A stretch of DNA of 64,000 nucleotides from a virus, in the IMG/VR virus record IMGVR_UViG_3300029959_000004, positions 32,001 through 96,000 of that record; one strand, written 5' to 3'. Each line of letters opens with the position of its first letter. Within the stretch, counting starts at the first letter, position 1. Below, piece after piece: positions 3,631-16,632 of this stretch. The translations under genes and the position numbers were made by a program. Under the pieces are notes generated by a model that saw only the letters and a list, made by a program, of their open reading frames with translations, was not told where the DNA came from and ran no database searches.

Positions 3631-4635
3631 TTATTTTTGTGGTAGAGAACCGCTTTCCATATAAGCTTTGTTGCAATCTTTACATATCATTGTTCCTCCC
3701 TCTAGAGAAATTTCTATCATTTCTTTAGTTGGAAAGAACTCTCCACAACTTTCACAACACTGTTCAGATTCTATATCTTCTTCGTTATTTTCTACTAATT
3801 TAATTTCTCCCTTTTTCACAGCTTTTCTACATTTTTTACATAAGTTGAAAGAAATAAAATCTCCTTTTGTTTCAGTTTCAATATCTACCGTCATTACATA
3901 TTTCATCTCATTACATCCTTCACATAAACCTTCAAAAACTACAGATTTGCCTTTGTTATCTACTTTATCTCTCACGGAGCTGTTTGTATTATCATTATAG
4001 TTTTCTTCTCTTTCATAATTATGAAAACCCAACAAACCGGCTCCTCTTTCAAAATAAGAACAAGATTTATAACCACTGTTTGAATAAAATATATTACTTT
4101 CTGTTTCCCAAGCACCAAACTTCTGAATTTCTCCATTGTTGTGCATAATAGCTAACTTATCTCCTTCAATAAATACGTTAATTAGTTTAATTACCGCTTC
4201 ACTGTGAAGATTATTTTTTATTGATTCGTCAGATAAAATATCTAATATAAACTTTTGTGTATCTGAGAATTTTTCGTGATGACCGTAGTTAGTAATTACT
4301 CCATTGTGAGCTACTGCAACTTGACAGATTAACTCCGGTTTTCTTAACAGTTCAGTATTCTTAGTTATAGGAAACGGATGCCTATTTCCTATATCTTTTA
4401 GACCGTGAGTAGCGAATCTAAAATGAATTACTAAAGCGTCTTCTTTAGAGAGATTATCTTTACACCAAGCGATCATATGTTTTGCATTAGTAAAGTCCTT
4501 CTTAATACAAACTTCATTAGAATTTACTTTCCAGTACATAATACCTATTCCGTCACTATTTCTAGTTTCTGCGTATAATAAATAAGCTTCTTTAGGAAAA
4601 TCTACTCCCTTCTCTTTAACAGCAATTAAGCACAT
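3631..4635 (-). CDS. class II (Ntn) glutamine amidotransferase with C-terminal Zn ribbons
   Basis: N-terminal MC; DGIG; HFRFATHG; NRHPF; AHNGVI; SDT; four CxxC pairs at the C-terminus. Confidence 0.85.
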   Translation of the reverse strand: MCLIAVKEKGVDFPKEAYLLYAETRNSDGIGIMYWKVNSNEVCIKKDFTNAKHMIAWCKDNLSKEDALVIHFRFATHGLKDIGNRHPFPITKNTELLRKPELICQVAVAHNGVITNYGHHEKFSDTQKFILDILSDESIKNNLHSEAVIKLINVFIEGDKLAIMHNNGEIQKFGAWETESNIFYSNSGYKSCSYFERGAGLLGFHNYEREENYNDNTNSSVRDKVDNKGKSVVFEGLCEGCNEMKYVMTVDIETETKGDFISFNLCKKCRKAVKKGEIKLVENNEEDIESEQCCESCGEFFPTKEMIEISLEGGTMICKDCNKAYMESGSLPQK

Positions 4636-6669: not shown

Positions 6670-6927
6670 TTATTTCTTTTCAATAGAACGCATAAATCTA
6701 ACTATACCATATTCTCTTATTATTTTCTTTGTAGAAAGAATAAAAGAATCTTCATACCAACTCCAATTATTCTCCAAAACATTGTAAACTTTTTTTCCGG
6801 GAGCAGTTGGAAAGTTGAATATTTTAGATATGGTAAATGTTTTGCCTATAAATGCGTTCATAATTTTATTCCAATCAAATTTACCTTCTTTTATTATTTT
6901 TATCTTATCTCCAATTTTATATTTCAT
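6670..6927 (-). CDS. KOW/SH3-like small protein with C-terminal tag
   Basis: YKIGDKI; ends IIREYGIVRFMRSIEKK. Confidence 0.75.
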   Translation of the reverse strand: MKYKIGDKIKIIKEGKFDWNKIMNAFIGKTFTISKIFNFPTAPGKKVYNVLENNWSWYEDSFILSTKKIIREYGIVRFMRSIEKK

Positions 6928-7176
6928 TTATTTATAGTTCTTCTTGCACCATTTTGCAATATTATATTCTTTATTTTTTCGTGTATTTACAAGTTTAAAT
7001 CTCCAATCGAAATAATCTTCTATTTGAAGTCTGTCAGAAATAACTTGATAAAATAGAGTATTTCCGCTCATATAACTATTTAAAATAGTATATTCTTTAT
7101 TTATAGTTAACTCACCAATATTAAGCCCACGATTTGAAACACAAATAACCTTAGTGTTTATTTTAAATATTTGCAT
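6928..7176 (-). CDS. SH3-like small protein with C-terminal tag
   Basis: ELTINKEY motif shared with 9754..9972; ends NKEYNIAKWCKKNYK. Confidence 0.7.
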   Translation of the reverse strand: MQIFKINTKVICVSNRGLNIGELTINKEYTILNSYMSGNTLFYQVISDRLQIEDYFDWRFKLVNTRKNKEYNIAKWCKKNYK

Positions 7177-7825
7177 ATTTTAAACTCTTCGCTTTAGAAA
7201 CAAATTTCAATACCCAAAATATATACATTTTCATAGTTTCATAATTTAAAGTTCCATTAAACAATCTAAATTCAAGAGTTTTATAGCTGGAGTTTCTAAT
7301 ACAATCAATATTAAGAGCGTAATATTTTCTATCTTCTCTCCAGAAATCATCTTTGCAATACTTTCTAAACTCTGAAATATTATTTATCGTTAAGTTTTTA
7401 AGATGTTCAGGTAAAGGATGACAATATGAACACAATCTATTCCGTTGTACTTTAAATTTTGTTATAATAGCTTTTTGATTAACTAAAAATCTTTTAATTA
7501 CATTCGTTATTTCTTCGTCTGAAAAGTTTGATATATTAACGTGAATATGTAACCCACAAGTACTATTAATATATCCTTCGTTTGTTTTTATCATTTCTAA
7601 TAATTTTTTGATTTCTAATAACGATTTTTTGTTGTAAAAAAGATAATTTTTATATGAAGGTTTATATTCAAGTCCGTTGTCTAGCGAACCATCTTCTGTT
7701 ATTTCCCATCCTTCTAAGTAATGTTCTCTATTCCAACGTTTATTATTTATTATATCATAAGTATCAATATCGTCAGGATATTCAACCTCTATTTCTGGAC
7801 TAAATCTAATCTGTGTTATTCTCAT
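7163..7825 (-). CDS. second putative amidoligase (COOH-NH2 ligase)
   Basis: PEIEVE, EDGSL, GLEY, CGLHIHVN, KYYALN, TLEFRLFNGTLN. Confidence 0.85.
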   Translation of the reverse strand: MRITQIRFSPEIEVEYPDDIDTYDIINNKRWNREHYLEGWEITEDGSLDNGLEYKPSYKNYLFYNKKSLLEIKKLLEMIKTNEGYINSTCGLHIHVNISNFSDEEITNVIKRFLVNQKAIITKFKVQRNRLCSYCHPLPEHLKNLTINNISEFRKYCKDDFWREDRKYYALNIDCIRNSSYKTLEFRLFNGTLNYETMKMYIFWVLKFVSKAKSLKYANI

Positions 7826-8102: not shown

Positions 8103-8349
8103 AAAATTTCTTACAGAAATTAACTATATTATATGGTTTAATTGTCTTCTTTTTTACTAATACAAAACTATCTTCATTAATCCAATCTTCAAAATCTGGA
8201 TTATCTAAATCTCTAGTTTTTACAGCATCAAAATTATTATATTTTCTTCGTCCTATCTCTGTTATTACAGTTTTTCTCCCTATATTTTCTAGAGAAACAC
8301 CTCTACCACTTCTTATAACTTTTACTATGTCTCCAACTTTAAATTTCAC
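8095..8349 (-). CDS. KOW/SH3-like small protein with C-terminal tag
   Basis: FKVGDIV; ends IKPYNIVNFCKKFYE. Confidence 0.75.
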   Translation of the reverse strand: MKFKVGDIVKVIRSGRGVSLENIGRKTVITEIGRRKYNNFDAVKTRDLDNPDFEDWINEDSFVLVKKKTIKPYNIVNFCKKFYE

Positions 8350-8375: not shown

Positions 8376-8501
8376 AATCTGACTAAAAAGGTGACTAACT
8401 ACCAATTTTTAGTTCTTATCGTGCTTTATATCAACTGATGTTGATAAAGGCGAGCAGAACCTTTTTAGTTTCGTTAGATTTTCACTAACTCTTCAGAGAT
8501 T
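8376..8501 (-). ncRNA. hammerhead ribozyme, type I, with large insertion in stem III
   Basis: AAUCU-CUGAAGA-GUUAG(ugaaaau)CUAAC-GAAA-CUAAAAAGGU...ACCUUUUUAG-UC^-AGAUU; predicted cut between 8381 and 8380. Confidence 0.85.
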
Positions 8502-12721: not shown

Positions 12722-14968
12722 TTAATCTCCTTTAATTACAGCCAAAGGGCTTAATTCCACAAGTATTTCTACTAAATCCGACTGATTTTTCATAACATCT
12801 TCAATTTTCTTATACGCTCCAGAAGCCTCTTCTAAATTATTTACATTTCTAATACCGTGAATAATTCCTTGATCGTCCAATATCTTAATTTCTTCTTTTA
12901 GATTTAATTGACGACAAGCCTCTTTTCTTCCCATAACTCTACCTGCACCGTGAGAACAACTTTCAAAGCTTTCTTTGTTTCCTAAACCTTTAACTATATA
13001 AGACTTAGTTCCTTGAGATCCCGGTATTATACCTATTGTTCCTTCACGAGCTAATGTTGCTCCTTTTCTATGTACTATTACATTCTCTCCAAAGTGATTT
13101 TCCCATATTGCGTAATTATGTGCTATATTTATTGTTGCTTTACCGCAACCGGTTTCTTGATTGTTTATGTCTTTTAGATAGAATCCTTCATCGTTAAATT
13201 CTTTGTTAAATATCTCTACTATATTACTCATCATTAAAAACCTATTAGCTAAAGCAAAATCCACACAATACTGCATTTCCAACATATAGTCTTTAGCTTC
13301 CTGAGTTTCTATAGGTAAGAAAGCCAATTCACATTCTTTAGGAACATAAACATACCACTTACCGTTTAGGTTCTTTGCTAACTCATTATAATAGTTAGCT
13401 ACTTTATATCCTAAGTTCCGACTTCCTGAATGTATCATAATCCAGATATTATTCTCGGTATCTTTTTGAATCTCAATAAAATGATTTCCCCCTCCTAAAG
13501 TACCGATTTGTTTTAACGCGTTGAAATATTCTTTTTTAATAACATTATAGTTTTCTAACATATCTCTAATTGTTTCTGCTTTAATTGGCATTAAATTTTC
13601 ATCTTGTCTTTCTTTATGACTTCCGTCACGCCCGTTTCCAACAGGAATAACTTCTCTAATCTTTCCCATTATCTTCTTTAAAGTTTCTCTATCTAATTGT
13701 TCTGATTTTAAAGAAGTCTTAACCGCACACATACCGCAATTATGAACAAATACCCCAGAAGATAAGGCAAAATTATGATATTTATCAATAGTTAAACAAT
13801 AAACATCTTCTTTTTTATTTATTAGTTTAATTGAAATAATTTTATGATTTTTTCTATTTTTATTCCAATAAGCTCCAAAACCATATTTTTTACCAATTTC
13901 AGAAGATTTGACTCTTCCTTTTTCAGATTTGTTATATTGAATTAAAAATTTCTTTCCTCTTTCTCCAGCTAATTTAGCTTGTTCTTTAAATTTTTCAGTT
14001 TTTGAATAATTAATCCAATTTTGTATTGCGTTCTTTTTTACAATTTCTTGGAAATCTTTTCTTTGATGTAATTTTCTCATATTTTCTGATGCCATTTTAG
14101 AAAATAAAATGGGATTATTCTTTCTTGCTATTTTAAATCCAACGATACCTAATTTAGAGTTTTTACCAACATTTTTATAATGTATTTCCCAATGTTTTTT
14201 CCAATTAACTCGTTTTATGTTTGTAGGGTTATTGTTATATTTATTAAAATCTATATGGTGTCTAACTCCTTTAGTTTTTTTATAAATACCATTTAATATA
14301 TTAAACTCATCTGCTAAAATATGAATATAGCGATACTTATTATTCTTAGGATTATAAATTACATTATAATCTTTCATTTTTTCTTTTTTAAATTGATGCT
14401 CAAATTCAATATCTTCCACTTCAAATGCTTTATTAATGTAAATTGGCATTAACGATTGTCCAATTTTTAATTTTTTCGCTCTAATTTCTTTATTTTCTCT
14501 ATCATAAAATATATGATCTTTAGTGCATTTAATTATTTCATTATTATCCAATTTTATTTCTAAAAGTTCGTTGGCAATTCGTGTTTTTCTGGGACTATTA
14601 ATTTTTGATATAACAATATTTGATTCTTTATCCAGAGAGTAACAAAAATTTTCTTTACCTCTATTATATTCTTTAATTAATTCTAAAAATGATAAATCTC
14701 TTCCATCAGTTAATTTAACTTTTGTATCACCAGTAAAACATCCAATATCAACACCTACTGCATTAGGTATTACTACTTTCTTAGTAGCTAATACTCCACC
14801 AATAGGCATACCAAATCCTTGATGACAGTCCGGCATTACCGCTATGTGTTTGAAAGCGAATGGTAAATTGGATAAATTAACCAATTGTTTCACAGCTCCG
14901 TCTTCTATCTCATCTAACCACATCTTTATTGGAACTTTTTGTTTATCTGTATCATATATTACTTTCAT
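12722..14968 (-). CDS. rtcB: RtcB RNA ligase (intein-containing)
   Basis: MPDCHQG, VGVDIG|C, GTLGGGNHFIE, HSGSR, HRKGAT, PGSQG, SCSHGAG, EEASGAYK. Confidence 0.95.
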   Translation of the reverse strand: MKVIYDTDKQKVPIKMWLDEIEDGAVKQLVNLSNLPFAFKHIAVMPDCHQGFGMPIGGVLATKKVVIPNAVGVDIGCFTGDTKVKLTDGRDLSFLELIKEYNRGKENFCYSLDKESNIVISKINSPRKTRIANELLEIKLDNNEIIKCTKDHIFYDRENKEIRAKKLKIGQSLMPIYINKAFEVEDIEFEHQFKKEKMKDYNVIYNPKNNKYRYIHILADEFNILNGIYKKTKGVRHHIDFNKYNNNPTNIKRVNWKKHWEIHYKNVGKNSKLGIVGFKIARKNNPILFSKMASENMRKLHQRKDFQEIVKKNAIQNWINYSKTEKFKEQAKLAGERGKKFLIQYNKSEKGRVKSSEIGKKYGFGAYWNKNRKNHKIISIKLINKKEDVYCLTIDKYHNFALSSGVFVHNCGMCAVKTSLKSEQLDRETLKKIMGKIREVIPVGNGRDGSHKERQDENLMPIKAETIRDMLENYNVIKKEYFNALKQIGTLGGGNHFIEIQKDTENNIWIMIHSGSRNLGYKVANYYNELAKNLNGKWYVYVPKECELAFLPIETQEAKDYMLEMQYCVDFALANRFLMMSNIVEIFNKEFNDEGFYLKDINNQETGCGKATINIAHNYAIWENHFGENVIVHRKGATLAREGTIGIIPGSQGTKSYIVKGLGNKESFESCSHGAGRVMGRKEACRQLNLKEEIKILDDQGIIHGIRNVNNLEEASGAYKKIEDVMKNQSDLVEILVELSPLAVIKGD
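13739..14740 (-). mobile_element. 334-aa intein with HNH-like endonuclease insert
   Basis: Starts CFTGDTKVKL; block B CTKDH; internal RHHIDFNKYNNNPTNI; ends VYCLTI...HNFALSSGVFVHN with Cys at +1. Confidence 0.92.
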
Positions 14969-14988
14969 TTTATATTCTCCTCTTTAGA

Positions 14989-15246
14989 TTAGTTTTTAGA
15001 ATCTTGATGTGAAATTCTATATTCCCAATTCCACCAATCTTCTATAGTTCCTACATAAAATGTACCTTTTCTTTCTACAAAACACAGCCACGCTTTAACT
15101 TCTCTTTTATCTTTTGTAATATCTACAACTATAGGAAACCAAGCAAACCACTTGTGCCATTCTTCAAGTTTTTTTATTTCTTTATCTTTAATTTCTTTTT
15201 TCAATCTTACTATATTTTCTTTTGTATAACCATTAGTCCAAATCAT
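14989..15246 (-). CDS. Trp-rich hypothetical protein
   Basis: WHKWFAWFP motif; its SD lies inside hammerhead stem III. Confidence 0.65.
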   Translation of the reverse strand: MIWTNGYTKENIVRLKKEIKDKEIKKLEEWHKWFAWFPIVVDITKDKREVKAWLCFVERKGTFYVGTIEDWWNWEYRISHQDSKN

Positions 15247-15247
15247 C

Positions 15248-15310
15248 TATTCTCCTTTCGGGCTTATTTAATGCCCTCATCAGTTAATGAATTACATTAA
15301 GAGGAACAAT
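15248..15310 (-). ncRNA. hammerhead ribozyme, type III
   Basis: UUCC-UC^-UUAAUG(uaauu)CAUUAA-CUGAUGA-GGGC(auuaaauaa)GCCC-GAAA-GGAG; predicted cut between 15301 and 15300. Confidence 0.9.
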
Positions 15311-15322
15311 CTAAGTAGTAGA
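15306..15322. repeat. 17-bp perfect inverted repeat, arm 1
   Basis: ACAATCTAAGTAGTAGA is the reverse complement of 15834..15850. Confidence 0.9.
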
Positions 15323-15326
15323 TTTT

Positions 15327-15815
15327 TTAGAAATAACTCTCCATTGTCAATAGACCGCCAACAAAAAACACAAAACCTAAAAATAACCAACACAAAATAA
15401 CTATTTCTCGTCTTTCTATTCCATAACAACCACGAAACACACTATCTATATCTCCCAAAGTATGATCCATCTCTTGACCGCTTATTTGATACATAGCTTG
15501 TTGATATTCAAGAGATTTTTCTTTCATTCTAGAAGTTGTTTCTAGTCTGCTTATTAAAGTATCTAATATCTTTAATTGAGTAGATTTAGTCATTCTTTCC
15601 GTTTTAAAGATATAGTTAGCATGTTCTTCGCTAATATTACTAACTTTTTCTCTGTATTCCTTAAAATACATCAGTTTATCTTTAGCTGTTGAAGCGTCAT
15701 CCGCTAATTTTAAGAACTGTTTATATTTTACCTCGTAGTTATATGCAATATCAACTCCGAGAATTGTTCCTAAAACAAAAAACAATATTGCAAGACCAAA
15801 TAATAGAAATTTCAT
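15327..15815 (-). CDS. two-TM membrane protein
   Basis: Hydrophobic N- and C-terminal helices. Confidence 0.7.
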   Translation of the reverse strand: MKFLLFGLAILFFVLGTILGVDIAYNYEVKYKQFLKLADDASTAKDKLMYFKEYREKVSNISEEHANYIFKTERMTKSTQLKILDTLISRLETTSRMKEKSLEYQQAMYQISGQEMDHTLGDIDSVFRGCYGIERREIVILCWLFLGFVFFVGGLLTMESYF

Positions 15816-15833
15816 TCTTATCTCCTTTTTTGG

Positions 15834-15850
15834 TCTACTACTTAGATTGT
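15834..15850. repeat. 17-bp perfect inverted repeat, arm 2
   Basis: TCTACTACTTAGATTGT. Confidence 0.9.
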
Positions 15851-15858
15851 CAAAGAAC
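15847..15858 (-). promoter_or_regulatory. boxA-like (NusB/NusE) element
   Basis: GTTCTTTGACAA, intergenic; a near-identical copy lies at 23051..23062. Confidence 0.6.
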
Positions 15859-15867
15859 CAAACTTAT

Positions 15868-16194
15868 TTACAAACAGATAGCTTGATGTGTTTTTTCATA
15901 TTCTTCCACGAACTTACATATTATAGTTCCATAGTCTCCTTCTATTCTCTCATTAGTATCTTTCTTAACAATAGACCAAGTTACAACCTGATGTTGTAAG
16001 TAGTTTTTATACTCCATTCTTTGTAGCATTATGTTATTATCCGTAAGAATATGAAAATTCTTTCTATCTCTCATTGCCATTTTCTGTGTTCCCATATAAA
16101 TTTTCCAAGCGTGTTCTTTTGCTCTTGCTAAAACCACATCAATTTGTTGCTTTTCTGTCAGGTTATTTAGCTTATTTACAACGTTTTGATCCAT
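15868..16194 (-). CDS. hypothetical protein
   Basis: ORF track; SD AGGAGG. Confidence 0.6.
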   Translation of the reverse strand: MDQNVVNKLNNLTEKQQIDVVLARAKEHAWKIYMGTQKMAMRDRKNFHILTDNNIMLQRMEYKNYLQHQVVTWSIVKKDTNERIEGDYGTIICKFVEEYEKTHQAICL

Positions 16195-16209
16195 TTTACT
16201 TCCTCCTAT

Positions 16210-16437
16210 TTAATAACCAAATTTATTTAGAGTATTGTCTAAATACGCTCTCATTACAATTAAAGTCGCTAAAAATTCATCATCTACGGTTATTTTTGTT
16301 CCACTTAAAGCTACAATATCGTCTAAAGCTACAATATCGTCAATTCTTTTTAATTTAGAGACCTTTTCATTTAGATTATCTGAAATTTTAAACATTTCAT
16401 CTCTACTTAATTTCTTTTTATTATTTCTCATTATCAA
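16210..16437 (-). CDS. hypothetical protein with internal DDIVAL duplication
   Basis: ORF track. Confidence 0.5.
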   Translation of the reverse strand: MIMRNNKKKLSRDEMFKISDNLNEKVSKLKRIDDIVALDDIVALSGTKITVDDEFLATLIVMRAYLDNTLNKFGY

Positions 16438-16572
16438 ACTCTCTTTCTAATTTAACTATCTCTTCCTCTAATAAAATCTTCTCGTCTTCTGTTAAATCCT
16501 TAAAAATTACGTGAGCCTCTTTCATTAACTTAATAATATTTCCAACTTTTTCCATTTTTATTCTCCTTAATT

Positions 16573-16632
16573 GGTCTCATTCAGTTTTGTATTAAACAAA
16601 AGACGGAGATAATGTAACTCTCCGTTTCGACC
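16573..16632 (-). ncRNA. hammerhead ribozyme, type II, variant core CUGAAUGA
   Basis: GGUC-GAAA-CGGAGA(guuacauua)UCUCCG-UC^-UUUUGU(uuaau)ACAAAA-CUGAAUGA-GACC; predicted cut between 16602 and 16601. Confidence 0.85.

Follow-up and report, generated by a model that had tools for sequence, protein, structure and literature searches.

Hammerhead ribozymes of types I, II, and III occur in clusters in phages and prophages, where they have been proposed to process long transcripts (Perreault et al. 2011, PMC3088659). The same survey placed the hammerhead of the haloviruses HF1/HF2 at 13 nt from a start codon and identified insertions of the A6a type as low-activity variants (PMC3088659). Conversion of a polycistronic RNA into messages of differing stability and translation efficiency has been suggested as a role for these elements, which is unproven, and a 2019 review regarded the function of most bacterial and phage hammerheads as still open (PMC6765202). 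In engineered constructs, hammerheads that free a Shine-Dalgarno (SD) sequence by cleavage switch on bacterial translation (PMC5367253, PMC12192606). Here, we analyzed a phage locus at which a type III hammerhead and the SD sequence of the following gene share the same nucleotides.

The virus record is a 109-kb contig of 31% G+C with terminal repeats, of which a 64,000-nt stretch (hereafter, the window) was studied. Contigs of phage DNA were present in DNA sequencing runs from groundwater, the probable source, and from landfill, and no RNA run was among those listed as containing the phage; inspection of these DNA contigs for joints revealed none. Every gene in this part of the window is carried by the minus strand (Table 1). 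The 80-nt gap between a 162-aa open reading frame (ORF) and an 85-aa ORF houses the ribozyme, and rtcB starts 20 nt past the end of the latter, which agrees with the original prediction of a ribozyme-led gene immediately before an RNA ligase gene. Neither of the two small ORFs matched a Pfam or PHROG family. The 85-aa protein recovered only itself among 5.8 billion proteins, an Atlas search provided no useful lead, and two candidate relatives (L001 and L002) were discarded as weak chance matches whose loci lack a hammerhead. A blastn search with positions 14000-16500 against a phage database gave no match either. In addition to its Pfam match, RtcB was recognized as PHROG 1075 (tRNA splicing ligase; 1e-108) and contains an intein of ~335 aa, with the Intein_splicing match (1.1e-17) spanning residues 93-410. 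The cREC_REC gene lies ~3 kb downstream of rtcB amid small orphan ORFs. A promoter-like sequence (TTGACA-17-AAAAAT) at 15350-15322 on the minus strand ends 16 nt before the hammerhead; it was set aside, as such matches occur at chance level in the AT-rich DNA of this region. Were this promoter real, a short 5' leader would be removed by the ribozyme in addition to read-through RNA.

Table 1. Genes, ribozymes, and ribozyme elements of the locus (window coordinates)
Feature	Position	Strand	Details
162-aa ORF, upstream	15327..15815	-	TAA stop at 15329-15327, 20 nt before the ribozyme
85-aa ORF, orphan, starting after the ribozyme	14989..15246	-	ATG at 15246 (15246-15244)
rtcB, RNA ligase with intein, 748 aa	12722..14968	-	Pfam RtcB, PF01139, 3.4e-106
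cREC_REC (cyclic-phosphate-processing receiver), 111 aa	9407..9742	-	Pfam PF20274, 9.5e-20
Type III hammerhead, 55 nt	15306..15252	-	Complete core; stems I/II/III of 6/4/5 bp, no mispair
Stem III, 5' strand UUCCU	15306-15302	-	Anti-SD-like
Stem III, 3' strand AGGAG	15256-15252	-	SD of the 85-aa ORF, followed by AAUAG and AUG
Stem I, UUAAUG/CAUUAA	15300-15295 with 15289-15284	-	Loop UAAUU, 5 nt
Core CUGAUGA	15283-15277	-	Conserved C3 U4 G5 A6 N7 G8 A9
Stem II, GGGC/GCCC	15276-15273 with 15263-15260	-	Loop AUUAAAUAA, 9 nt
GAA (G12 A13 A14)	15259-15257	-	Conserved core
Type II hammerhead	16573..16632	-	Core CUGAAUGA; 1-nt insertion after A6
Type I hammerhead	8376..8501	-	Core CUGAAGA; stem III of 10-11 bp capped by a long insert

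Consistently with the original prediction of a type III hammerhead ahead of the gene that precedes rtcB, the gap encodes an element with a full core and three stems free of mispairs. All conserved core positions of the hammerhead are in place, with A15256 paired to U15302 and C17 at 15301, and the pairs that adjoin the core are the standard ones (U1.1-A2.1, G10.1-C11.1, and A15.1-U16.1; criteria as in PMC3088659). Loops close stems I and II while stem III is open, as expected for the type III topology. Stem III is formed by U.G, U-A, C-G, C-G, and U-A pairs between 15306-15302 and 15252-15256, and cleavage is predicted between 15301 (C17) and 15300. The hammerhead fold of the 55-nt element has a calculated energy of -10.4 kcal/mol, compared to -10.8 kcal/mol for the minimum free energy (MFE) structure. 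In a long upstream context the hammerhead fold lies ~5 kcal/mol above the MFE, and the long-range pairings that emerge with more upstream sequence are U-rich and located in coding sequence. Loops I and II, whose tertiary contact favors fast cleavage in hammerheads, had also been described as complementary. They do share a 4-nt match (UAAU/AUUA), but the same was seen in 63% of shuffles of these loops.

To assess significance, the whole 109-kb genome was scanned with our own descriptor covering all three hammerhead topologies. The scan delivered three good matches, one each of types III, II, and I, each of them intergenic and carried by the coding strand; a fourth match at genome positions 13715-13596, outside the window, was judged spurious because of its long loops and core insertion. 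None of 150 dinucleotide-preserving shuffles contained a match as good and compact as the type III element, with the loose descriptor finding 0.46 matches per shuffled genome and the "strict" matches amounting to 4 in total. A covariance model, R1, trained on 11 further natural hammerheads of type III, aligned over its full length to 15306-15252 with 44 bits (E ~1e-11), a score that is somewhat inflated because the training sequences were found by patterns sharing the core and stem III sequence of the window element. The training set had also been filtered for perfect pairing, and its 100% pairing is partly by construction.

Searches with Rfam at gathering thresholds returned nothing in the window and called none of the three hammerheads of this phage, and RF00008 did not match the type III element even at E<=10. 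The Rfam hammerhead models do work on controls (e.g., L019 and L091). RF00008, however, missed the prokaryotic type III hammerheads of all seven control loci, so the blank on the window reflects a sensitivity gap. Prokaryotic type III hammerheads thus seem to be under-annotated, since the Rfam type III model overlooks a sizeable subgroup. In E-value mode, Rfam listed preQ1-II and snoRNAs only, at chance level; the preQ1-II reading scored 21.6 bits against a cutoff of 47 and relied on the SD tail AAAGGAGAA.

Exact patterns for this ribozyme matched nothing in IMG/VR or in the GTDB genomes, and the collections searched contained no close homologue of the element. The pattern UUCCUC...CUGAUGAG...CGAAAGGAG yielded chance matches in IMG/VR and JGI metagenomes, alongside one unusual sequence (L137:4164-4231, minus strand). 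This hammerhead-like sequence combines UUCCUC, a perfect 6-bp stem I, and CUGAUGA with two hairpins that replace stem II, and continues with GAAAGGAG, beyond which an ATG follows at 9 nt; either chance or a split-stem-II variant could explain it. A landfill relative of ~95% identity, represented by a low-depth contig covering 15282-15527, displayed no changes in 15282-15306 and 7 changes in 15324-15347, just upstream of the ribozyme. This comparison lends weak support to a constraint on the ribozyme sequence. That the motif might be a chance arrangement or a dead relic that does not cleave would fit the lack of an Rfam match, the AU-rich stem I, and the absence of a homologue of the exact element. 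Nonetheless, the perfect core, the R1 score, the shuffling result, and the two additional hammerheads on the same strand nearby render this explanation barely credible, and the element is very probably a genuine self-cutting RNA, as judged from its sequence.

As originally proposed, the 3' strand of stem III is AGGAG, located 5 nt before the ATG, and AGGAG at a spacing of 5-6 nt is the commonest SD arrangement in this phage. The opposite strand, UUCCU, is on the 5' side of the predicted cut and would leave on the upstream product, also as proposed. An extension of the helix by AAU, which had been part of the same prediction, adds no stability. The stem III duplex was calculated at -4.8 kcal/mol, versus -8.7 kcal/mol for the SD:anti-SD duplex. 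In the models, AGGAG was unpaired with a probability of 0.22-0.53 before cleavage, varying with the context used, and of 0.67-0.79 in the 3' product. Cleavage would thus raise the predicted accessibility of the SD only ~2- to 3-fold. An alternative 9-bp register likewise pairs the SD in uncleaved RNA. Masking of the SD therefore appears real but modest in these nearest-neighbor models, which omit tertiary contacts that could strengthen masking by the folded ribozyme. Because the SD doubles as a strand of the ribozyme, the RNA should not be able to bind a ribosome and fold as a hammerhead at the same time. No sensor domain was recognized: the loops of 5 and 9 nt are too short to accommodate one, and no riboswitch family scored above threshold. 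Cleavage should accordingly be constitutive.

A search for the same layout in other genomes revealed further cases. Among the type II hammerheads of IMG/VR, many have AGGAG and an ATG within the next 10-25 nt, which indicates that hammerheads immediately before ribosome-binding sites are common in phages; in one type III element of this collection (L017) the SD abuts stem III. Closer to the window element, a phage contig (L157, of which L152 is a homologue) has the stem III UUUUCCU/AGGAAAA, with the ATG of a 53-aa membrane-like ORF one base further on. As by-catch, we found an element in a Patescibacteria metagenome-assembled genome (MAG) (L210:5026-5076) in which a 483-aa ORF begins 1 nt past stem III. 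A pattern search of GTDB genomes identified 21 descriptor-positive type III elements with UCCU-H...AGGA. They include a family in Woesearchaeota/Pacearchaeota (DPANN) MAGs (cassette loci L168, L184, L203, L211, L231, L249, L275, and L281), in which the ATG is placed 6-8 nt past AGGA and the ORFs encode 91-191 aa. The otherwise unrelated ORFs of this cassette share the N-terminus MET(Q/E)(N/Q)K, and L281 has two copies 360 nt apart. Overall, an ATG at 3-10 nt past AGGA accompanied 13 of the 21 hammerhead-positive pattern matches and 15 of 101 hammerhead-negative ones, a count that is somewhat inflated, given that the comparison sets were chosen by patterns sharing stem III and core sequence with the window element; one family dominates the 13. 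Five further candidates (L147, L149, L155, L156, and L159) were left uncounted, as they have a 2-bp stem II and a true start ~40 nt downstream.

The same stem III occurs where no gene follows. Several loci in CPR and Gammaproteobacteria MAGs contain a UCCU/AGGA stem III without an ORF after it (L206:5878-5943 and 7169-7227; L245:3597-3654, minus strand; L251:3530-3593; L267:3751-3813, minus strand; L182:5266-5328; L191:3173-3223 and 4164-4212). At these loci, a GC-rich segment ending in ...CCCG or ...CCCA precedes the ribozyme and terminator-like hairpins come after it, with no Rfam calls; they look like sites of 3'-end processing of a structured RNA. AGGA in stem III is thus a trait of this hammerhead subgroup that can double as an SD if there is a gene behind it, and its presence alone is not evidence of selection for masking.

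These data bear on two opposite views of the overlap. The original prediction was a natural cleavage-ON translational switch. A dedicated switch of this kind would restrict translation of the 85-aa gene, and possibly that of rtcB through coupling, to RNA that has undergone self-cleavage, and the overlap would have been selected for this purpose. The geometry is as predicted, for the SD is wholly within stem III and the 9-bp alternative register pairs it too. SD-appropriate spacing recurs in at least three other lineages, and engineered SD-freeing hammerheads work in bacteria (PMC5367253, PMC12192606). However, the helix is weak, the predicted change in accessibility is small, and there is no sensor domain. 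Moreover, the other two hammerheads of this phage and most phage hammerheads that we saw leave the SD outside the ribozyme, and UCCU/AGGA is common as stem III among type III relatives with no gene behind them, so that the sequence need not have been selected to mask an SD. We therefore consider a dedicated switch unlikely, while retaining the arrangement on which it was based. At the other extreme, the overlap could have no effect at all, being the outcome of genome compaction and of the usual UCCU/AGGA of this family, with the ribosome simply melting stem III. The anti-SD duplex is indeed ~4 kcal/mol stronger than stem III, the family retains AGGA in stem III even before terminators, and in L017 the SD merely abuts the stem. 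Two points speak against this explanation, which we regard as more doubtful still: the ATG at SD-like spacing in 13/21 hammerhead as opposed to 15/101 non-hammerhead pattern matches, and the cost in initiation rate that any paired SD entails.

The type III element is one of three hammerheads within an 8-kb stretch, each in an intergenic gap just before an SD sequence. In the type II hammerhead, which has the stem III CGGAGA/UCUCCG, an AGGAG motif is placed 5 nt past the ribozyme, followed by an ATG at 16555; in the landfill relative, this ribozyme is changed in loop III only. Just upstream are hairpins resembling terminators (16733-16693) and a site resembling a promoter (16689-16661), so the type II hammerhead may sit in a 5' leader. 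In the type I hammerhead, the SD is found ~17 nt past the cut and the start codon is a GTG at 8349. The 5-nt stem I strand AGAUU of this ribozyme is repeated beside the downstream SD (AGAUUAGGAG). Another combination of self-cleaving motifs was noted in a different phage contig (L099), where a type I hammerhead and a Twister-P5 ribozyme (56 bits) are ~400 nt apart (6732-6784 and 7185-7239). The three coding-strand hammerheads preceding SD sequences in the window match the hammerhead clusters of other phages, for which a role in the processing of polycistronic RNAs has been proposed (PMC3088659, PMC6765202).

The stretch from the type III cut to the type I cut includes both rtcB and the cREC_REC gene, and the latter gene is a member of the RNA-repair gene block that extends from one cut to the other. 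Hammerhead cleavage leaves a 2',3'-cyclic phosphate and a 5'-OH, which are the very ends that RtcB joins. It is thus conceivable that the three hammerheads and RtcB constitute one system, whose products would be religated, circularized, or spliced; the fragments concerned would be 16601-15301 (1.3 kb) and 15300-8381, a 6.9-kb RNA-repair message. If so, expression of the block, including access to the hidden SD, would be set by the balance between ribozyme cutting and ligation. The coexistence of a hammerhead and rtcB in the HF1-group haloviruses, where they are nonadjacent and no link was proposed (PMC7230728), is in line with this idea. Against it, no hammerhead was detected with the descriptor or R1 within 4 kb of rtcB at any of nine related phage loci (36-62% identity), and none of the hammerhead loci fetched (L012-L127) has rtcB; in these sequence comparisons, the hammerhead-rtcB linkage is not conserved. 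Reversal of cleavage by religation, as had been envisaged, is also unlikely on energetic grounds, because the 5-bp intermolecular helix (-4.8 kcal/mol) cannot keep the ends together and should dissociate at once, leaving RtcB or the ribozyme little opportunity to rejoin the same ends. Perreault et al. searched for spliced or circular RNAs arising from hammerhead clusters, without success (PMC3088659). RtcB with cREC_REC fits a function in RNA repair or counter-defense that requires no ribozyme. Taken together, a cut-and-rejoin system is very improbable.

We consider it probable that the type III hammerhead serves constitutive transcript processing and insulation of the downstream message, accompanied by transient and weak masking of the SD. 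Constitutive cleavage between 15301 and 15300 would separate the 162-aa gene from the block that begins with the 85-aa gene and rtcB. The upstream fragment would take the UUCCU strand with it and bear the 2',3'-cyclic phosphate, while the downstream RNA would have a 5'-OH terminus, followed by the small hairpins of stems I and II and by AGGAG in single-stranded form. The main effect would be that the downstream message is processed and insulated, in line with the other two hammerheads. The SD would be masked weakly and only until cleavage, which would amount to a modest delay or tuning of translation and not to a regulated or reversible switch. Should this influence on translation be as small as modeled, the element would be merely another processing ribozyme with a compact layout. 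Even so, a natural hammerhead that has the ribosome-binding site of the next gene built into its closing helix offers a concrete and easily tested link between self-cleavage and translation, and the layout is not confined to a single locus but recurs in phages and in small-genome archaea and bacteria, as the L157, Patescibacteria, and DPANN elements show.

With regard to known systems, the locus resembles the phage clusters of Perreault et al. in the canonical core, the intergenic location on the coding strand, the mixture of topologies flanking short gene blocks, and the A6 insertion. It differs from them in that the SD itself is the 3' strand of stem III; searches of open-access text gave no description of a natural hammerhead whose stem is the SD. 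Among prokaryotic elements, the type III hammerheads of CPR/Patescibacteria, DPANN, and Gammaproteobacteria MAGs (L206, L210, L245, L251, L267, L269, L191, and the L168-L281 family) are built like the window element, with the same topology, a stem I of 6-7 bp with a short loop, a stem II of 3-4 bp, and a (N)UCCU-H/AGGA(N) stem III. R1, on which the window element scored 44 bits, was built from members of this group. Unlike the window element, only some of them (the DPANN family and L210:5026, as well as the phage element in L157) abut a start codon. Among synthetic parts, insulators of the RiboJ type also position a hammerhead just upstream of a ribosome-binding site, remove upstream RNA, and leave a defined structured 5'-OH end, but their ribosome-binding site is outside the ribozyme. 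Engineered aptazymes and thermozymes rely on an extended masking helix plus an aptamer or thermometer and are conditional, whereas the natural element makes do with 5 bp, lacks a sensor, and should cleave constitutively with weak masking. Both, nevertheless, pair the SD within a ribozyme helix whose masking strand is removed by cleavage.
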